DNA of 64,000 bases, taken from an uncultured Acidobacteriota bacterium. GTDB taxonomy: Bacteria > Acidobacteriota > Thermoanaerobaculia > Multivoradales > UBA5704. The notes below the pieces were generated by a model. It saw only the letters and a list, made by a program, of their open reading frames with translations, searched no databases and had not been told where the DNA came from. Positions 1 through 56,037 of the stretch are shown here, one piece after another. Position 1 is the first letter of the stretch. Every line of letters starts with the position of its first letter. Made by a program: the position numbers and the translations under genes. The DNA lies in assembly GCA_963770895.1 (NCBI GenBank), contig CAVYRF010000002.1, positions 1,824,001 through 1,888,000 of the forward strand. The letters run 5' to 3'.

Positions 1-496
1 GTCAAGCGTATCTTGCCATTTTCGTATTGCGAGAGCTGGCTGGTGGCGAAGCCGCTGGCCTTGGAAAGCTCGATTTGCGACCATCCCATGACGATCCGCA
101 AGGTCGAAAGAGCAAGGCCCAACGTTGGACGATTGCGGCGTGTCAGCCCCTGCACCACTGCGCGCGGGGCAGCATCGGGCCGGTTGCGGTGACGCCCCAG
201 GACAGTGCTCAAGGCGGGGGATAGCATTTTCGATCTACTCGCCCTCATAGCATCGGCTTTCCAGCATGGCGGTATTCACCTCGACGGCTGCCTGCGCAAA
301 CGAGCATGTGCCGCCGCCTGGGCTGGGCGCGAGCGGGTCGGCTAGCCGGCAGCATGCAAAGGACTCCAGAAATCGCTTAAGATGGGTATTCCTTGACGGA
401 TGGTCGCAACACGGACAACCAACGGCCCTGGTGTCCCGCACCGGAAGCGGTGAGCACGTGTTTGTTGAGGATGCACTTCGATGACGTGGAGGTCGC

Positions 497-2332
497 ATGG
501 TGGGAGGAGACAGGCCACCCTGGGCTAAGGCGCTGAAGGTCTTACGGCTGATCCGACGCTGGAACCGGGCACAGCTGGGGCGGGCCGCGGGCCTTTCGGC
601 GAGCGCGATCACGCGCTATGAGAAAGGGAACCGCCGGCCGGAAGAGGTGCGCAGCCTGGTATCTGTCATGGGCTACCCGCCCCTGCTTTGGGAGCGTACC
701 CTGGCGTTCGTAGCCTCTACGGAAGGCGAGCATCCGAACCAGACGGCGCCGGGTGAAACAGCGCCCTCGCCCCGCATCGACGCGCTGGTGGGTGACGCCG
801 GCCGCTGGGTGAACGAGGTGGTGCGCGAGGCCCTGACCGGGGCGTTCGACGCCCTTGGTGGGACGGGCGCGCGGCCACGGCTCAGGACGCCGCCGATCGG
901 CGAGGCGCTGGCGATCCTCCGCGCGATCCGCGGCTGGGAGCGCAAGGACCTGGCGGATGCCGTTGCCAGGCCGGAGGAAACCGTCGCCAACTACGAGTAC
1001 GGCAAGACGAAGCCCAAACTGCTGGTCCTCCAGGAGCTGCTTTCAGCGATGGGCTTCTCGTTGGCCGTCTTCGAGTGTGCGCTGGACTTCGTACGCACAG
1101 CGCAGGAGTCGCGCAGAACCCTTGCCGGCGGTGGGCGGGTACTGTCCTGGCAGGTGGAAGAGGTCGCCGCCCAGAAAGCCCGCCGCATCGAGGAGTTCAC
1201 CCGCACCGAGCTCAGCGCCCTGACGGTGGCGGCGCAGGTTCTGGCCTCGCGCGAAGCGGCACCGGTGGCGTGGAAGGCGTTCTCGGCCTGCCCCGAAGTC
1301 AGCCGGCTGGAGCTGGTGCGCCAGGTGGCCGAGTTTCAGACGGCTGGGTTCTGTGAGTTGCTGTGCGAAGAAAGTCTCGCCGCGGCGAGCGACAGCGCGA
1401 GCCGGGCGCGGCAGCTGGCCCAGCTGGCCGAGGCCACGGCCGAGCTGGCCGAGGGGGGACAGGCCTTCCGCTCACGCCTGCGCGGCTATGCCGGCGCCCA
1501 CCTCGCCAATGCCGAGCGGGTGGCTGGCCGCGATCTGCCGGCTGCCGAGGAGACGCTGGAGCGCGCCTTGGCGGCCTGGGACGCCGGTGACGGCGCCGAT
1601 TCCGGCCTGCTCAACGCGGCGCGGGTGTGCGGCCTCACCGCCTCGCTGCGGCGGGCACAACGGCGCTTGCCCGAGGCTCTGGCGGCGCTCGATGAAGGGC
1701 TCAAGATCGACCGCTGGGGAGAAACCCCCACCCTGCTGCTCGCCAAGGCGCGCGCCCTCGTCGAGTTGGGCGAGTACGGGGCTTCGATCGAGCAGTTGCG
1801 GGCCGCGGCGCCGTGGGTCCACGGCGAGCGCGAGCCGCGCAAGCTCTTTGTGATCGAGAATCTGCTGGTGTCCAACCTGTGCCGCCTGGGGCAGTTCGCC
1901 GCCGCCGAGCGGCGGTTGCCCGGACTGCGGCAGCTGGCGCTGCCCAACCGGCTCGACCTGCTGCGGGCAGCCTGGCAAACCGGCATCGTCGCGGCCGGTC
2001 TGGGGCGGGCTGACGAGGCGCTTGCCATCCTGGAGCAGGTGCGCACCGATTTCATCGCTACAGAGAACTTCTACGTTGCAGCGCTGGTCACTCTGGAGCT
2101 GGCGGAGGTACACGCCGGCCTGGGCCACACGGCCGAGGTCAAGGAGTTGGCTCGCAAGTCGGCGCCGGTGTTCGAGAACCAGCAGGTGCATTGCGAGGCG
2201 CAGCGGGCGCTGGCGCTGTTCCGCCAAGCGGCCGAGGAGGAGAAGGTCACCGGCGGGCTGCTTCGCCAGCTCATCGTCTACCTCCATCGTGCCCGGCACA
2301 ATCCGCAGCTGTGCTTCGCCACCGCCGCATGA
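497..2332 (+). CDS. XRE-family regulator with two HTH domains and a C-terminal TPR-like region (regulator R1)
   Basis: Two Cro/XRE HTH motifs (LKVLRLIRRWNRAQLGRAAGLSASAITRYEKGNRRP; LAILRAIRGWERKDLADAV...VANYEYGKTKP) followed by Ala/Leu-rich helical repeats. GGAGG RBS upstream of the ATG. Confidence 0.88.
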   Translation: MVGGDRPPWAKALKVLRLIRRWNRAQLGRAAGLSASAITRYEKGNRRPEEVRSLVSVMGYPPLLWERTLAFVASTEGEHPNQTAPGETAPSPRIDALVGDAGRWVNEVVREALTGAFDALGGTGARPRLRTPPIGEALAILRAIRGWERKDLADAVARPEETVANYEYGKTKPKLLVLQELLSAMGFSLAVFECALDFVRTAQESRRTLAGGGRVLSWQVEEVAAQKARRIEEFTRTELSALTVAAQVLASREAAPVAWKAFSACPEVSRLELVRQVAEFQTAGFCELLCEESLAAASDSASRARQLAQLAEATAELAEGGQAFRSRLRGYAGAHLANAERVAGRDLPAAEETLERALAAWDAGDGADSGLLNAARVCGLTASLRRAQRRLPEALAALDEGLKIDRWGETPTLLLAKARALVELGEYGASIEQLRAAAPWVHGEREPRKLFVIENLLVSNLCRLGQFAAAERRLPGLRQLALPNRLDLLRAAWQTGIVAAGLGRADEALAILEQVRTDFIATENFYVAALVTLELAEVHAGLGHTAEVKELARKSAPVFENQQVHCEAQRALALFRQAAEEEKVTGGLLRQLIVYLHRARHNPQLCFATAA

Positions 2333-2373
2333 CGAGGAGGGACCGAACAGAAAGAGTCCGATCCCTCGCTGCC

Positions 2374-2428
2374 TCGGCACCCGCGCTGCCGAGAGCCGCC
2401 CTGTCGCGTGGGCGGCTGCCGCTCGTGG
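2374..2428. terminator. Double hairpin between convergent R1 and peptide gene P1
   Basis: Stems ctcggca..tgccgag and agccgccc-tgtcgcgt-gggcggct lie between two convergent stop codons. The related sequence gccctgtcgcgt recurs at ~2978 and ~5437. Confidence 0.5.
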
Positions 2429-2434
2429 GCGGAT

Positions 2435-2707
2435 TCAACCGCCGTAGGGATCGGCTGCTGATCCGTCGTCGGTTTGCGCGTTGGAAGAGGTGCTGGCCGG
2501 TCGCCGGATCGTCACCTTGGCAGGCGGTGCCGCGGTCGGCTCCAGCGGCGCCAGTTCGCCGGAGAGCCATCCCCAGAGCCGGATCAACGGCTCCCAGACC
2601 GCGGCGGGCGGCTTGCCCTGCGCCTGGAGCGGTGCGGCGAAGGATGCGGTGGAGGCCACCGTCAGGGCAAGGAGCAGGGCGAGGGCGATGCTGCGAGGAA
2701 CACGCAT
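2435..2707 (-). CDS. Small secreted pro-peptide P1 (90 aa) ending in TDDGSAADPYGG
   Basis: GAAGGAG RBS before ATG 2707. Sec-type signal peptide MRVPRSIALALLLALTVASTASFA, then a Trp-rich helix and a P/A/S/T linker. Reading frame is conserved in paralog P2. Confidence 0.82.
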   Translation of the reverse strand: MRVPRSIALALLLALTVASTASFAAPLQAQGKPPAAVWEPLIRLWGWLSGELAPLEPTAAPPAKVTIRRPASTSSNAQTDDGSAADPYGG

Positions 2708-2875
2708 GCGGGACTCCTTCTGCAAAGGCGACGGCGACGCCAGCCGGAATGGCCGGCGCGGCGCCCCCCGAAAGCTAGGGTGCCCGTGCTGTCAAGGATG
2801 CGGCTGAAAGCACCCGTTTCTGTGGATCTTTTTGACGCCGCTCTGCCGGCAGTCCTTGGAGGAGCATCTTATGCT

Positions 2876-3058
2876 ATGCCAGCGAAGCGGGGGCGCAGCG
2901 ACGGGCTCGGCCTGGCACCGAGCTTTCTGCGCCAGCTCAAGGGCTGGAGCCAGGGGCAGGTGGCGACGGCGGCCGGCGCCCTGTCGCGTGGAAGGCTCAG
3001 CCGGCGGGGCAGCTGGCGCTCGCAAGCGGATTCAGCCGCCATAGGGGTCAGGTGCTGA
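2876..3058 (+). pseudogene. Truncated 5' remnant of an XRE-TPR regulator (R2)
   Basis: MPAKRGRSDGLGLAPSFLRQLKGWSQGQVATAAG matches the R3 N-terminus, then joins the downstream hairpin-motif sequence at ~2978. There is a 5-nt duplication (atgct-atgcc) at the start. Confidence 0.8.
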
Positions 3059-3304
3059 TCCCTCGTCGGTTTGCGGGTTGGAAGAGGTGCTGGCCGGCCG
3101 CTGGATCGCTCCCTTGGCAGGTTGTGCCGCGGTCGCATGCAGCGGCGCCAATTCGCCGGAGAGCCATCCCCAGAGCCTGGTCAACGGCTCCCAGACCGCG
3201 GCTGGCCGCTTGCTCTGTGCCTGGAGCGATGCGGCGAAGGATGCAGTGGCAGTCACCGTCAGGGCAAGGAGCAGGGCGAGGGCGATGCTGCGAGGGATAC
3301 GCAT
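3032..3304 (-). CDS. Small secreted pro-peptide P2 (90 aa) ending in TDEGSAPDPYGG
   Basis: GAAGGAG RBS before ATG 3304. Signal peptide MRIPRSIALALLLALTVTATASFA. Paralog of P1. Confidence 0.82.
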   Translation of the reverse strand: MRIPRSIALALLLALTVTATASFAASLQAQSKRPAAVWEPLTRLWGWLSGELAPLHATAAQPAKGAIQRPASTSSNPQTDEGSAPDPYGG

Positions 3305-3466
3305 GCGGGGCTCCTTCCGCGGAGGCGACGGCGATGCCGGCCGGAATAGCCGGCACGGCGCCCCCGAAAGCCAGGGTGCCCGTGCTGTCAAGGATGCGGC
3401 TGAAAGCACCCGTCGCTATGGATCTTTTTGACGCCGCTCTGCCGGCAGTCCTTGGAGGAGCATCTT

Positions 3467-5338
3467 ATGCCAGCGAAGTTGGGACGCGGTGACGAGCTGG
3501 GCCTGGCGCTGAGCTTCCTGCGCCAGCTCAAGGGCTGGCGGCAGGGCCAGGTGGCGGCGGCGGCCGGCGTCAGCCCGAGCGGCCTCTCTGCCCTCGAACA
3601 GGGCAAACGGCGACAACCTACGTTGAGGACCCTCGGTCCGGTCGCGGCTGCCCTCGGAGTAGACCTGGCGCTCGTGGACGAGATGGTGGCTCTGATCAGG
3701 GAACTGCGCCGCGGTGAGACGCCGAAGGCGGCGCGGGGCGGCGCAAGCTGCGATGCGGTCTTGGGCGCCGAAGCTGCCTTTCGCCAGAGGGTGAGGGAAG
3801 CGGTGATCGCAACGACTTCCCACGCGCTGGATGGTTCCGGATGCGCTCACCAGCCGAGCCGGCCACGGCTGACGGAGGTCGGCAGCGCCGAGGAGCTGGG
3901 CCTGTCGCTCACTCTTTTGCGCCAGGTGCGGGGGTGGAGGCAAAAAGACCTGGTTGCCGCCTCCGGCATCTCATTGGAGGTGATCCAGGCGATCGAGCAA
4001 GGCCGGCGGCGCCGGCTGGCGTCGGAGCTGCCGGCCATCCTGGCCGCGCTCGGCATGGATATGAGCGCCCTGGCGAAGGTAGCGGCCCTGGTGCGCCAGG
4101 TGCGCCGCCATCAGGGGACGGCGCAGCTGCCCTCGACGCTGCCATGGGCCCCACCGCCTCACGGCTGGGCTCCCGCCCTGCGCCCGGATCTCGCCGGATT
4201 GCTGCACGCCGGGGTCCAGGCCGCTAGCGCGGTGCCGCCGGATCAGGGCGAGAGGCGCCGGCGTGTGGTCGCGCTCTTGCCAGTCCTTGCCGAGTGTCCG
4301 CCGGAAGCGCAGCGGGCCCTGGCCCGCTTGGTGGCAGATCTGCGCACGCCGGAAGCGTGTCAGCTGCTGTGCGAGGAGAGTCTTGCCGCGGCGGGCGACA
4401 GCGCGAGCCGGGCGCGGCAGCTGGCCGAGCTGGCCGGGATCACAGCTGAGCTGGCCGAAGGTGGCGACGCCTTCCGCTCACGCCTGCGCGGCTATGCCGG
4501 TGTCCACCTGGCCAACGCCGAGCGGGTGGCTGGCCGCGACCTGCCGGCTGCAGGGGAGACGCTGGAGCGCGCCCTGGCAGCCTGGGACGCCGGTGCCGGC
4601 GCCGACTCCGGGCTGCTCAACGCGGCGCGGGTGTGCGGCCTCACCGCCTCGCTGCGGCGGGCGCAGCGGCGCTTGCCGGAGGCTTTGGCGGCGCTCGACG
4701 AAGCGCTGAAGATCGACCGCTGGGGCGAAACTCCCACCCTGCTGCTCGGAAAGGCCCGCGCCCTCGTCGAGCTGGGCGACTACGAAGCTTCGATCGAGCA
4801 GTTGCGGGCGGCGGCGGCGAGCGTGGAAGGCGAGCGCGAGCCGCGCAAGCCTTACCTGATCGAGAACCTGCTGGTGTCCAACCTGTGCCGCCTGGGGCAG
4901 TTCGGCGCCGCCGAGCGGCGGTTGCCCGCGTTGCGGCAGCTGGCGCTGCCCAACCGGCTCGATCTGCTGCGGGTGGCCTGGCAAACCGGCACCGTTGCGG
5001 CCGGTCTGGGGCGCACCGACCAGGCGCTTGCCGTCCTGCTGCAGGTGCGCGCCGACTTCATCGCCACGGACAACTTCTACGTTGCAGCGCTGGTGACTCT
5101 GGAGCTGGCGGAAGTACACGCCGGCCTGGGCCACACAGCCGAGGTCAAGGCGTTGGCCCGCGAGTCGGCGCCGGTGTTCGAGAACCAGCAGGTGCATCGC
5201 GAGGCGCAGCGGGCGCTGGCGCTGTTCCGCCAGGCAGCCGAGGAGGAGAGGGCCAGCGGCGAGCTGCTCCGCCAGCTCATCGTCTACCTCCACCGTGCAC
5301 GGCACGATCCGCAGCTGAGCTTCGCCGCGAGGGCATGA
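3467..5338 (+). CDS. XRE-family regulator with two HTH domains and a C-terminal TPR-like region (regulator R3)
   Basis: GGAGGAG RBS before ATG 3467. HTH motifs FLRQLKGWRQGQVAAAAGVSPSGLSALEQGKR and LLRQVRGWRQKDLVAASGISLEVIQAIEQGRR. The last 981 bp are nearly identical to R1. Confidence 0.88.
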   Translation: MPAKLGRGDELGLALSFLRQLKGWRQGQVAAAAGVSPSGLSALEQGKRRQPTLRTLGPVAAALGVDLALVDEMVALIRELRRGETPKAARGGASCDAVLGAEAAFRQRVREAVIATTSHALDGSGCAHQPSRPRLTEVGSAEELGLSLTLLRQVRGWRQKDLVAASGISLEVIQAIEQGRRRRLASELPAILAALGMDMSALAKVAALVRQVRRHQGTAQLPSTLPWAPPPHGWAPALRPDLAGLLHAGVQAASAVPPDQGERRRRVVALLPVLAECPPEAQRALARLVADLRTPEACQLLCEESLAAAGDSASRARQLAELAGITAELAEGGDAFRSRLRGYAGVHLANAERVAGRDLPAAGETLERALAAWDAGAGADSGLLNAARVCGLTASLRRAQRRLPEALAALDEALKIDRWGETPTLLLGKARALVELGDYEASIEQLRAAAASVEGEREPRKPYLIENLLVSNLCRLGQFGAAERRLPALRQLALPNRLDLLRVAWQTGTVAAGLGRTDQALAVLLQVRADFIATDNFYVAALVTLELAEVHAGLGHTAEVKALARESAPVFENQQVHREAQRALALFRQAAEEERASGELLRQLIVYLHRARHDPQLSFAARA

Positions 5339-7220: not shown

Positions 7221-9293
7221 TCAATGCTCGGCGGCGCGGAGCAGCCGATCGAGGGTGGCGGATTCCACCGGCTTTACCAGGTGGACGTCGAAGCCGGCTT
7301 CCTGGGAGCGCTGCTTGTCTTCGTCGTGACCCCAGCCGCTGGCGGCGATGAGCAGGATGTGGCTGCCCCAGTCTTCGGCGCGGATGCGGCGCGCCAGGTC
7401 GTGGCCGTTGAGCTTGGGCATGGCGACGTCGAGCACCATCACGTCGGGGCGAAAGTCGCGCGCGATGGCCAGGGCCTGCTCGCCGTCGTGAGCGGTGCGC
7501 GTCTGGTGTCCCAGCAGGCTGAGCACCAGCGACAGGCTCTCCGCTGCGTCGACGTTGTCGTCCGCCACCAGGATGCGGCGGCCGGGGCTTGGCGGCGCGG
7601 TGGGGGCGAGCGCCGGCGCCGGGGAGGTGGCCGGCCGCGCCGCTGCCGTGGGCGCCAGCGGCAGGTGGACGCGAAATTCGCTGCCGGCGCCGGGTCCGTC
7701 GCTGTGCGCCTCGATGGTGCCGCCGTGCATCTCCACCAGCCGCCGCACGATGGTCAGGCCGATGCCCAGGCCGCCGCCGACCTGGGCGTGCGAGCGGTCG
7801 ACCTGCGCGAACATGTCGAAGATGCCGCTGAGCTTGGCGGCGGGGATGCCGATGCCGTTGTCGCGCACGGTGACCACCGCCGTTGCGCCGTCCTGGCGCG
7901 CCAGGGTGAGCTCGATGCGGCCGCCGTGCGGCGTGAACTTGGCGGCGTTGTTGAGCAGGTTGGCGAACACCTGCACGATGCGCGTCGGATCGGCTTCCAG
8001 CACCAGCTCTTCGCCGGGGAGCGTGACCGCCAGGGTGTGGCCGCACTGTTCGATCAGCGGCCGGCTGGTTTCGAGCGCGTCGCGCAAGGCGCCGGCGAGC
8101 GGCAGCCGGGTGCGCCGCAGGTCGACGATGCCGCGGTTCACCCGCGACAGGTCCAGCAGGTCGTCGATCAGCCGCACCATCTGAGCCAGCTGCCGCTCCA
8201 TCGTTTCCCGCGCCATCACCGCGACGTTGCCGTCGCCGGGAGCCATCTTGAGCAGTTCCAGGGCGTTGCGGATGGGAGCCAGGGGGTTGCGCAGCTCGTG
8301 CGCCAGGGTGGCCAGAAACTCGTCCTTGAGGCGGCTCGCGTCGCTCAGCTGCGCCGCGATCTGGCGAAAGCGGGCTTCGCTGGCCTGGAGGGCGACGTCG
8401 CCGCGCATGCGCTCGGTGACGTCGGCGCCTTCGACGAAGATGCCCGCCACCCTGCCGTCGCTGTCCTTGATCGGCTGGTAGACGAAGTCCACGTACCGCT
8501 CGCTGACCGCGCCGCCCGGCGTCGTCTGGACGGCGTACTTGGCGCCCCTGGCCACGTAGGCCGTGCCGCTGGTGAAAACCTCGTCGAGCAGGGTCAGGTA
8601 GCCCTGCTCCACCGCGTCCGGCAGGGCTTCGGCGACCGTCCGGCCCAGAACGGGCCGATGCCCGATCAGCTGCAGGTAGCTGGGATTGGCCAGCTCGATC
8701 CTGTGTTCGGCGCCGCGCAGCATCGCCATGAAGGTCGGCGCCTGTTCGAACAGCTGGGACAGCTGGTCGCGTTCCAGGGCCAGCCGGCGAGCCATGAGGA
8801 TCTGCTCGGTCGTCTCGGTGCAGACGACCAGGATGCCGCCGATGCCGCCGGGTGCGGTCAGCTCGTCGATCGGGCTGTAGCTGTACGTCCAGTAGACGTC
8901 TTCGCGCCGCCCATGGCGGGTGATCGGCACCAGGTGATTGACCTGCCAGGTGGCGCCGCCGCCGCTGGCGACCTGCTCGATCTGCGGGCCGATGATGTCC
9001 CAGATCTCGGCCCAGACTTCGCGCGCCGGCCGGCCCAGCGAGCCGGGGTGGCGCTCCGGTCCGATCGATTCCCGGTAGGCGTCGTTGTACAGGCAGGCCA
9101 GGTCAGGCCCCCACCAGATGTACATCGGGTGCCCGGTATTGAGCATGAGGCGCACCACCGTGCGCAGCGATTGCGGCCAGCCGGCGGGCGGGCCGAGCGA
9201 CGACGCGGTCCAGTCGTGCGCGCGCATCAACGCCCCCATCTCGCCGCCGCCGCTCAGAAAGCTGGGCTCGGTCGTCTCGGGTCCCACACTCAT
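7221..9293 (-). CDS. PAS-domain hybrid sensor histidine kinase/response regulator
   Basis: DWTASSLGPPAGWPQSL N-terminus, PAS domains, H-box LAHELRNPL, NLLNNAAKFT, DNGIGI, GLGIGL, and a C-terminal REC domain (VADDN, LDVAMP, KP). Confidence 0.95.
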   Translation of the reverse strand: MSVGPETTEPSFLSGGGEMGALMRAHDWTASSLGPPAGWPQSLRTVVRLMLNTGHPMYIWWGPDLACLYNDAYRESIGPERHPGSLGRPAREVWAEIWDIIGPQIEQVASGGGATWQVNHLVPITRHGRREDVYWTYSYSPIDELTAPGGIGGILVVCTETTEQILMARRLALERDQLSQLFEQAPTFMAMLRGAEHRIELANPSYLQLIGHRPVLGRTVAEALPDAVEQGYLTLLDEVFTSGTAYVARGAKYAVQTTPGGAVSERYVDFVYQPIKDSDGRVAGIFVEGADVTERMRGDVALQASEARFRQIAAQLSDASRLKDEFLATLAHELRNPLAPIRNALELLKMAPGDGNVAVMARETMERQLAQMVRLIDDLLDLSRVNRGIVDLRRTRLPLAGALRDALETSRPLIEQCGHTLAVTLPGEELVLEADPTRIVQVFANLLNNAAKFTPHGGRIELTLARQDGATAVVTVRDNGIGIPAAKLSGIFDMFAQVDRSHAQVGGGLGIGLTIVRRLVEMHGGTIEAHSDGPGAGSEFRVHLPLAPTAAARPATSPAPALAPTAPPSPGRRILVADDNVDAAESLSLVLSLLGHQTRTAHDGEQALAIARDFRPDVMVLDVAMPKLNGHDLARRIRAEDWGSHILLIAASGWGHDEDKQRSQEAGFDVHLVKPVESATLDRLLRAAEH

Positions 9294-9403
9294 TCCTAAA
9301 TCCCTTTGTGATAGCAATTTACCTTACCACAACGAGACGGTGCGGGGCCGTGGCCGGGGTGCGCCGGCGACGCTTCGCGGAGTGCGCTATCGTCCCGAGC
9401 GAC

Positions 9404-54980: not shown

Positions 54981-55817
54981 TCAGGGGGTTGCGGGCTCGA
55001 GGTTTTCCTGGCGGAACTCGGGGCTGGCGTGGACGTCGACCTGGCGCAGCGGGGTGTCGCCGGTGTTGACGAAGCGGTGCGGGGTGCGGGCGGGGACGGC
55101 GACGATGTCGCCGGCGGCGATGCTGTGCTGCTGGTCGCCGATGTAGACGGTGCCCGTGCCCTCGAGCACGACGATCACCTCGTCGTATTCGTGCCGGTGC
55201 AGCTTGGGGCCCCGCCCCGGCGGCGCCGTGAGCAGATAGAGCGAGGAGGCGACGCCGTGGCGGGCGCCGGCAAACTGGTGCGACATGCCGACGAAGGGCA
55301 GGTCTGCGATGCGGACGATCGAGGCCGGAGCGCTGGGCGGTTCGCGGTAGGGGTCCTTGCGGCCCGCGGGCGGCGAGCTGAGGGCGATCAGCAGCGCGGC
55401 CGCGGAGGCCGAGTAGACCGAATAGTCCAGAGGCGACTTGAGACCGAAGGAGATCGCCATGGCGGTGGCGAAGACGGCGAGCAGCACGGAAGCGGCGATG
55501 CCGGTCAAGCGGGGCCACAGCCCCAGCACCAGGGCCACGCCGCAGGTGAGCTCGGCCGCGGTGGCCGCCCAGGCAAGGTAGGGGATGCTGGCCGCGGGCA
55601 TGAACGAGTTGACCTGGGCGGTGTAGCGCTCGAAGTCTGGGAAGTAGGCGAGGCCGGGATGCTCCTTCCAGATCCCGAAGCGGCTGGCCACGGCGGACAG
55701 AAACGCCGCAGCCAGGGCGATCCTGGCGTAGACAAGGCCGGCCCGCGGCCAGGAAAAAGGCGCGGCGGCGCGCGCCTGGGGAGCGGCGGATGACGAGGTC
55801 GAGGGATCTGTGCTCAT
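54981..55817 (-). CDS. DoxX-family membrane domain fused to a cupin domain
   Basis: ARIALAAAFLSAVASRFG..KSPLDYSVY (DoxX-like) followed by HRHEYDE..GD...VPARTPHRF (cupin). AGGAGG RBS. Confidence 0.85.
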   Translation of the reverse strand: MSTDPSTSSSAAPQARAAAPFSWPRAGLVYARIALAAAFLSAVASRFGIWKEHPGLAYFPDFERYTAQVNSFMPAASIPYLAWAATAAELTCGVALVLGLWPRLTGIAASVLLAVFATAMAISFGLKSPLDYSVYSASAAALLIALSSPPAGRKDPYREPPSAPASIVRIADLPFVGMSHQFAGARHGVASSLYLLTAPPGRGPKLHRHEYDEVIVVLEGTGTVYIGDQQHSIAAGDIVAVPARTPHRFVNTGDTPLRQVDVHASPEFRQENLEPATP

Positions 55818-56037
55818 GGTTGTAACCTCCTGGGCCTGGTCGTCGAAGCCCACCGGTGAAGCCTAGTCGAAGGTGGACAACCCAGAAAGATCCATTTATG
55901 GAATTTCTGCTGGTCCACTTGGAGCCCGCTCCAAAGGGCCGCGGCATATTTTTTGCTGCGCGGTTGGGAAGATGCCGTTTCACGCAGACGGTGTCGCCGG
56001 TTGCCAGCGAAAGTTCCCAACGAAAGCGAGGTCCGCG

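Follow-up and report, generated by a model that had tools for sequence, protein, structure and literature searches.

A lineage-specific receptor/pro-peptide module in Thermoanaerobaculia and its putative role in peptide sensing

In the PlcR-PapR and AimR-AimP systems, an XRE-type helix-turn-helix (HTH) domain is fused to tetratricopeptide repeats (TPR), and an adjacent gene encodes an exported pro-peptide whose C-terminus gives rise to the ligand. Intracellular peptide-pheromone receptors of the RRNPPA group have been described for Gram-positive Bacillota and their mobile elements (PMC10075063, PMC12700828, PMC9765709) and are treated as a hallmark of Gram-positive Bacillota in two large surveys (PMC10075063, PMC12700828). 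Literature searches returned no paper joining RRNPP with Acidobacteria, with the proviso that supplementary tables of RRNPP surveys might list non-Bacillota candidates; nothing evidently related to peptide quorum sensing in Thermoanaerobaculia appeared in titles and abstract openings, and the papers listed included no work on acidobacterial quorum sensing combining tetratricopeptide proteins with a propeptide. Here we describe a locus at positions 497–5338 of a window of 64,000 nucleotides (nt), the whole stretch of DNA that was analyzed (contig CAVYRF010000002.1, positions 1,824,001–1,888,000; assembly GCA_963770895.1), from an uncultured Acidobacteriota bacterium. At this locus, genes for HTH-TPR regulators (R) lie beside genes for small exported-type peptides (P).

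An earlier note, drawn from the letters of the window, had read the locus as an RRNPP-like array of receptor/peptide pairs in a diderm host, with residue differences between the peptides as possible specificity variants. The module proved to be a real, strongly conserved and lineage-specific receptor/pro-peptide pair. The core idea of that note holds, and its array of specificity variants does not. The term RRNPP-like stands in part: the conserved pairing of an exported peptide with a receptor is present, and sequence homology to RRNPP families is absent from searches of the PDB.

Gene linkage of R and P

The locus comprises two regulators and a duplicated peptide gene. R1 (497..2332, plus strand), predicted from the list of open reading frames (ORFs) and Pfam to be a cytoplasmic regulator of 611 amino acids (aa) that carries a pair of XRE-type HTH domains followed by a TPR superhelix at the C-terminus, is convergent with P1 (2435..2707, minus strand), a putative 90-aa pre-pro-peptide with an ATG start, across a gap of 102 nt. 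P2 (3032..3304, minus strand) is a 90-aa paralogue of P1. R3 (3467..5338, plus strand), which likewise combines two HTH domains with a TPR superhelix according to Pfam and an AlphaFold2 (AF2) model, is transcribed divergently from P2 and measures 623 aa from an ATG at 3467 behind GGAGGAG, or 636 aa from a TTG at 3428.

This arrangement recurs well beyond the host genome. At least 120 stretches in 185,579 species genomes matched a two-repeat degenerate DNA pattern, and the 80 listed among them, all loci from metagenome-assembled genomes (MAGs), yielded 83 P-like ORFs, defined by at least two G-x3-DP-x-G cores with the last near the stop codon. An R-type TPR match lay within 500 nt of 77 of these ORFs and within 1500 nt of two more, leaving four with none. 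The expectation that P-like genes stand next to HTH-TPR genes was borne out: R was convergent (tail-to-tail) with P in 74 of the 83 cases, with 3′ ends −2 to 371 nt apart; of the nine P genes lacking a tail-to-tail R, five are no more than 350 nt from where the retrieved sequence ends. Upstream of P, a second and divergent R was present in 27 of the 46 cases with enough room. Given these two counts, the order R1→ ←P R3→ is the typical module; the best-conserved partner of P is the convergent R (R1 type), not only the divergent one. When 500 neighboring ORFs were clustered, the R family comprised 153 proteins in 78 of the 80 loci, and only R and P recurred; the next family, of small CxxC-motif proteins, occupied 9 of 80 loci. 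Maturases, ABC transporters and peptidases did not recur near P and R in these 80 loci of 8 kb, and no maturase lay within ~9 kb downstream in the window, in keeping with the earlier statement that no maturase for ribosomally synthesized and post-translationally modified peptides (RiPPs) is near. The recurrent small neighbors are ~105–170 aa long and bear an HxxxCxxC-like motif (L109:3579-4172, L072:3779-4282 and similar), with a related group in three more loci; we take them to resemble zinc-finger anti-sigma factors.

The window carries this module with a 597-bp tandem duplication, visible as direct repeats (D1, D3 and D4; identity 87–96%, spacing 591–597), with one unit at 2410..3006 and the other at 3007..3603. 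Each unit contains P together with the intergenic region and R3 up to about codon 35, and the copies are 88% identical in the P part, 96% in the intergenic part and 87% over the first ~100 nt of R3. Since the duplication copied only the 5′ end of the R3-type gene, R2 (2876..3058, plus strand) is a truncated 60-aa frame: its first ~35 residues resemble the R3 N-terminus (76% identity to R3 residues 11–47 by tblastn), after which the frame enters the duplication junction. R2 is a dead remnant of an R3-type 5′ end and no receptor. The locus is one R-P-R module with a recent partial duplication. Of the proposed array R1→ ←P1, R2→ ←P2, R3→, the gene order is correct; the three pairs are not, because P1 and P2 are left without separate receptors. 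Nor do the D/E and A/P differences between the peptides have an evident role as specificity variants, with R2 dead and P1 and P2 (synonymous divergence dS 0.22, non-synonymous divergence dN 0.09, dN/dS 0.43) both under purifying selection, positive selection not being evident. This ratio, two further copies in the genome and a large conserved family argue that P1 and P2 are not chance ORFs.

Two side observations concern the duplication. One short-read contig (run X1) joins 2822 to 3419, omitting 596 nt, with 52 nt that fit both sides; this junction may represent repeat collapse in assembly or a natural single-copy allele. The C-domains of R1 and R3 (1385–2332 and 4391–5338; dS 0.23) and the two peptide genes (dS 0.22) are equally diverged, so the homogenization of the receptor C-domains and the duplication of P may belong to one rearrangement episode.

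The peptide family and its distribution

P1 and P2 are 82% identical and share a basic-then-hydrophobic N-terminus, an invariant LWGWLS helix, a Pro/Ala/Ser linker and a conserved C-terminus (TDDGSAADPYGG in P1, TDEGSAPDPYGG in P2) that ends in DPYGG in both; AAGGAG stands 5–6 nt ahead of the ATG in each gene. The ORFs and the alignment agree with the earlier description of 90-aa exported-type proteins with a Trp-rich helix, a linker and conserved C-termini, the putative signal peptide being read from the sequence and by a crude ad hoc rule. No Pfam or NCBIfam family came near its curated cut-off for P1 or P2, the only rows being PepSY_2 (11.6 bits, cut-off 24.3) and NF033902 (10.9, cut-off 95).

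A profile of 22 P sequences from the host and related genomes, searched against 1.84 billion representative proteins, gave 1844 matches at E ≤ 1e-3 and 312 at E ≤ 1e-10, counted as representative clusters. The best 150 matches are all 90–201 aa long; 146 have a signal-peptide-like N-terminus by the crude rule, and 125 carry a Trp-containing helix before the first repeat. One G-x3-DP-x-G core is present in 6 of these 150 representatives, two in 22, three in 95, four in 23 and five in 4, and in 138 no more than 6 residues separate the end of the last core from the C-terminus. The core consensus is [DKE]-[NEAT]-G-C-x-[ILAV]-D-P-[NSDHY]-G-[RG]-C, and the family plan consists of a signal peptide, a Trp helix and 1–5 repeats of G-C-x-[IL]-D-P-x-G-x-C. 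Because most members carry two to five Cys-flanked repeats, the Cys-less, single-core DPYGG form of the window is a minority variant. Of six relatives scored against DUF6799 (cut-off 26.8), one passes (P0003, 31.1 bits), P0006 reaches 15.1 and the other four have no match; NF047412, the NCBIfam entry for a GCG_CRPN prefix to repeats, scores 13–15 bits against a cut-off of 24. Apart from the one passing relative, the P family appears undescribed by Pfam and NCBIfam. The ESM Atlas returned for P only 'hypothetical protein' clusters from Acidobacteriota, and its model of P0003 has a predicted local distance difference test (pLDDT) value of 0.44; therefore no stable fold is predicted for P.

The family is confined to a narrow lineage in the genomes searched. 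R homologues bearing a name are labeled Thermoanaerobaculia, and the titles of the 80 listed loci all name Thermoanaerobaculia, Thermoanaerobaculaceae, Thermoanaerobaculum, 'Holophagales' or Acidobacteriota MAGs. At E ≤ 1e-5 the P profile matched in 90 of the 92 genomes of the host's GTDB family, including all 56 high-quality genomes and all 11 genera, with 0–34 matches per genome and 1037 in total. In an even sample of the phylum, where just 16 candidates were scored per genome and sensitivity is therefore lower, matches came only from 2 genomes of the host's family and from 0 of 299 other genomes. A 4-sequence P alignment used as a pattern gave 57 pattern matches, 0 of which were confirmed by tblastn. 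The occurrence in Bacillota and mobile elements that is described for RRNPPA was not found here: the 80 listed loci are all acidobacterial by title, and LpxC (1 match) and the Omp85 family (5 matches) are present in the host genome, which is therefore that of a diderm, as had been claimed.

In the host genome (8.16 Mb, 3 contigs), two more P copies accompany P1 and P2. The third copy is intact and 79% identical to P1 (C2:365281-365917; L003:1498-2137), and abuts a displaced 116-aa C-terminal R fragment (96% identical to R3); a full receptor is not adjacent. The fourth is 43–44% identical and has the same R→ ←P R→ order; all four copies thus adjoin R or an R fragment. The genome contains ~40 R-like loci (44 tblastn rows, some of which are pieces of one gene) and at least 10 R-P-R modules whose cores differ, for example four copies of KPQNGCGIDPNGGQQC, four of KPQNRCxxDPDGQC and three of QATCxxDPxxxC.

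P-like tails also occur on other proteins of this genome. Among eight TPR proteins of 370–590 aa, several end in ...LTDRLLRHRGEFEDPLG, with G-x3-DP-x-G placed 3–4 residues from the C-terminus as in P. They are encoded at C2:3843810-3845207, 4273176-4274525, 491316-492353 and 55087-55950 and at four further sites (L036:8811-10211 etc.), some of them 0.2–1.3 kb from R clusters. TPR proteins ending ...GEFEDPLG were considered as a part of the module and rejected, being absent from the 80 listed MAG loci.

Receptors, predicted complex and surroundings of the module

Pfam detects two HTH_3 stretches in each of R1 (E 3.5e-11) and R3 (E 3e-16), and TPR_12 in R3 at 31.2 bits (cut-off 30.1) and in R1 below the cut-off at 24.1 bits; the families assigned are solely generic TPR and HTH ones, and NCBIfam gave only sub-threshold HTH/antitoxin-type matches. 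The AF2 model of R3, based on a 66-sequence alignment (mean pLDDT 83.5), contains helix bundles at residues 8–82 and 141–218 with disordered linkers, and a 14-helix TPR-like superhelix at 260–611 with pLDDT mostly above 90. Pfam and the model together confirm the HTH-HTH-TPR plan that had been proposed for R1 and R3. No hydrophobic segment is visible in the receptor sequences, which fits a cytoplasmic location. Aligned with VIA-align, the modeled C-domain matched LGN (Z 21.7), phage Rap 8rsv_B (Z 21.3), RapF 4i9c (Z 20.7) and NprR 5dbk_A (Z 20.4), and RapJ-PhrC 4gyo_B at Z 21.3 with a root-mean-square deviation of 4.0 over 294 aligned residues. As modeled, the receptor fold is that of peptide-binding TPR receptors, membership in RRNPPA not being demonstrable.

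The two receptors that flank P differ sharply along their length. R1 and R3 are 23–42% identical over residues 1 to ~290 and 77–95% identical from 297 to the end, and residue 297, the onset of this similarity, is where the predicted contacts with P begin. Over R1 residues 297–611, 276 of 315 positions are identical to R3 without a gap (dS 0.23, dN 0.07). In a tree of 31 R C-domains of the host genome, R1 and R3 are nearest neighbors, and the same holds for the receptor pair of the second DPYGG module; in KPQN-type modules, the convergent receptors form one clade and the divergent receptors its sister. Twenty same-strand R pairs were available from the MAG loci, 14 of which were kept (200–2000 nt apart, both receptors complete). 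Ranked by C-domain among 84 R, the module partner came first in 9 of these 14 modules (56–98% identity); ranked by N-region, it did so in only 1. Flanking receptors thus repeatedly keep their putative ligand-binding domains alike while their DNA-binding heads diverge, a pattern that fits one ligand and two regulators.

The earlier suggestion that the C-terminal peptide is the ligand was examined by complex prediction with R1 residues 240–611 and P1 residues 30–90, both given as alignments. The complex scored 0.65 (runs 0.63, 0.65 and 0.71) vs 0.00–0.26 for controls, in line with that suggestion; the score mark applied is attained by 58 of 80 complexes of solved structure, compared with 2 of 110 mismatched pairs. 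Between runs, contacts agreed to at least 32%. The confident P1 interface consists of residue 79 and residues 81–90, the conserved tail, with D86, P87, Y88 and G89 the tightest and lowest in error, and on R1 it occupies the concave face of the TPR groove (residues 294–600). The model supports binding of the P tail in the R1 groove and does not by itself show it. Across many MAGs, 85 R C-domains gave a mean entropy of 1.50 at the contact positions vs 1.92 for all positions, a value as low being reached by 9 of 5000 random sets. N338, R341, V342, S383, R490 and W493 are 93–100% conserved; positions 294, 387, 416, 419, 451, 452 and 597 of the groove are variable.

Between P and the divergent R, two elements, TGTCAAGGATGCGGCTGAAAG (2790–2810) and TTTTTGACGCCGCT (2829–2842), span 2790..2842, and the duplication gives a second copy at 3386..3438 (3386–3406 and 3425–3438). 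Both are kept in four of five aligned P/R intergenic regions of the host genome and a congener, and the intergenic copies, 96% identical, are better conserved than the synonymous sites of the P copies (dS 0.22). The alignment marks these elements as candidate promoter or operator sequences. A promoter scan of the locus returned no sigma-70-like promoter, a terminator scan gave 6 terminator-like sites against 2.7 expected, none of them between R1 and P1, and no strong inverted repeats were found at the locus. The sequencing runs listed as containing the locus were soil metagenomes, with no RNA run among them.

On the other side of R1, at the window start, R0 (3..248, minus strand) is a third R paralogue whose N-terminal HTH part is encoded within the window; the whole gene, which extends past the window start, spans C2:1822242-1824248 of the genome, and its region corresponds to a tblastn match of R3 at C2:1822767-1824122. 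In the tree, the R0 C-domain falls in a clade of 'third' R genes adjoining other modules, so R-P-R modules may hold three regulators. R0 is divergent from R1, and its clade mates lie 2–4 kb from other R-P-R modules (C2:1905121, 4274525 and 5559411). Downstream of R3, the window encodes a DinB-like protein, an unknown protein, a hybrid histidine kinase, a PMT_2 glycosyltransferase and, 8.6 kb away, an ABC exporter. The histidine kinase (PAS, HisKA, HATPase_c and receiver domains; 7221..9317, minus strand) lies 2 kb downstream of R3, and a region homologous to its N-terminal part adjoins another P/R locus (L068).

Interpretation and relation to described systems

On evidence that is in silico throughout, we lean, without great assurance, towards the view that the module is a peptide-sensing system that works like RRNPP with unrelated sequence families and in a diderm host. 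P would be made as a pre-pro-peptide and exported by Sec, and proteolysis would free its C-terminal G-x3-D-P-x-G unit, of which most relatives have several. The peptide would then re-enter the cytoplasm, possibly via an Opp/Dpp-type importer; two SBP_bac_5 (Opp/Dpp-type) genes in the host genome, unlinked to modules, are candidates. Inside the cell it is predicted to sit in the concave TPR groove of the flanking regulators. Because the TPR domains within a module are nearly identical and the double-HTH heads differ, one peptide could alter the DNA binding of both regulators and so steer two different outputs, including one at the P/R intergenic region, where the conserved elements are candidate sites.

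Several points weigh against peptide sensing of this kind. The fold match is generic, with eukaryotic LGN (Z 21.7) tying with RRNPP receptors in Foldseek and VIA-align comparisons. Searches of all PDB chains with R3 (phmmer) and with the 66-sequence profile, at E up to 1, found only HTH proteins, and no Rap, NprR, PlcR, Rgg, PrgX or AimR chain was among the matches; the receptors are analogous to RRNPP receptors and not demonstrably homologous, and 'RRNPP-like' denotes a mode of working. In the predicted complex the P partner has a low pLDDT (34–40), the docking may in part be memorization by the predictor because TPR-peptide complexes are common in the PDB, and structural reasons, too, would make groove positions more conserved than random ones. 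Gene conversion between neighbors, without selection, could account for the shared TPR domains. The main difficulty of the mechanism is that most relatives have Cys-flanked cores, suggestive of an oxidizing compartment. The outer membrane poses a second: a diderm host adds two crossings of it, for which no linked component was seen, the Opp-like genes not being near the modules. Cys flanks are present in 408 of 447 family cores, and because such cores would form disulfide loops in the periplasm, they suggest an extracytoplasmic role and fit poorly with a linear cytoplasmic ligand.

These flanks and the Trp-rich helix (125 of 150 representatives), both typical of extracytoplasmic peptides, lend weight to the possibility that P acts itself as an effector in the periplasm or after secretion, perhaps by binding metal or Ca, in adhesion or as an antimicrobial, and that the XRE-TPR protein merely regulates the P gene while its TPR domain senses something else or oligomerizes. 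Adjacency of a regulator to its target would yield the same linkage, and P was not detected at all of the ~40 R-like loci of the host genome. However, the complex model puts precisely the conserved DPxG tail in the groove where controls score 0.00–0.26, the window's P1 and P2 are R-linked without any Cys, no immunity, exporter or partner genes recur in the 80 loci, P is predicted to be unstructured, and a TPR domain common to two flanking receptors is hard to explain if its ligand is unrelated to P. An effector role is in our judgment rather unlikely; if true, it would still reveal that this lineage has a large and new family of its own, made up of secreted Cys-loop repeat peptides that have dedicated regulators. 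The same docking result would also serve a circuit in which R binds the tail of the unexported P precursor in the cytoplasm, as secretion-coupled feedback or a chaperone-like arrangement with no extracellular or re-import step. Such a circuit needs no double crossing of the outer membrane and would find a core at the extreme C-terminus in 138 of 150 representatives, accessible without processing; the internal tandem cores (2–5 in 144 of 150), however, would be purposeless without processing, the Cys-flanked loops suggest that cores mature in an oxidizing compartment, and we know of no precedent for XRE-TPR regulators acting on an unexported precursor, all of which makes it quite improbable. 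Tandem conserved cores, conserved flanks and an N-terminal helix recall the leader/core architecture of a multi-core RiPP precursor, with modifying enzymes encoded elsewhere and R as regulator of the pathway, but the lack of a maturase family in the 80 loci and downstream in the window, the presence of up to 34 precursors per genome without linked enzymes and a Sec-type signal peptide, atypical for RiPP precursors, leave this very improbable.

If the module does serve peptide sensing through a cytoplasmic receptor, such signaling also evolved in diderms, and the passage of 1-kDa peptides across the outer membrane becomes a concrete question. Such a system, almost universal and much expanded within a soil lineage that is abundant and for the most part uncultured, would offer dozens of orthogonal peptide/regulator pairs, and a synthetic peptide with a purified receptor would give a simple handle on social behavior in Acidobacteria. 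A wider proposition, which we advance tentatively as a possibility, is that this family of soil Acidobacteria runs a private pheromone repertoire of 1–34 peptides per genome, mostly multi-core and disulfide-looped, in which receptor pairs share a ligand domain by concerted evolution and differ in their heads; this would amount to an independent invention of RRNPP-type communication outside Gram-positives, in which each peptide is read by two receptors.

With Rap-Phr and NprR-NprX, the module shares a cytoplasmic TPR receptor beside a small pro-peptide of Sec type, the ligand coming from its C-terminal part (here by prediction), many paralogous pairs per genome (here up to 34 P) and a C-domain fold match at Z 19–21; NprR likewise has an N-terminal HTH. 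Phr propeptides, according to one study, may hold tandem pheromone copies, as P does (PMC11343458). The acidobacterial module differs in having no detectable sequence homology to these systems, two HTH domains per receptor, two receptors per peptide, a convergent gene orientation, mostly Cys-flanked DPxG loops of ~10 residues where theirs are linear 5–8-mers, a conserved Trp helix in the pro-peptide and a diderm host.

Rgg-SHP resembles the module in placing an HTH and TPR-like receptor beside a small peptide gene. Unlike P, SHPs are short and hydrophobic, lack a classical Sec signal peptide and are exported by PptAB; Rgg has one HTH in ~285 aa and no sequence relationship to R. The shp gene of group III shp/rgg loci lies downstream of rgg and convergent with it, as P does with R here (PMC3679016), and Rgg2/Rgg3 illustrate that two regulators can answer neighboring peptides (PMC3509411). 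PlcR-PapR and AimR-AimP differ from the module in their single HTH, in a peptide gene downstream on the same strand and in their occurrence in Bacillota and phages, and have no sequence homology to it. PatS/HetN-HetR of heterocystous cyanobacteria offers a likeness within diderms, in that a C-terminal peptide motif binds a cytoplasmic DNA-binding regulator; HetR, however, is no TPR protein, PatS lacks a Sec signal peptide and moves between cells of the filament, and the genes do not form a conserved adjacent pair. Set beside all of these, the new features of the acidobacterial module are its diderm host, the double HTH, the two receptors per peptide with homogenized ligand domains and the multi-core Cys-loop peptides.

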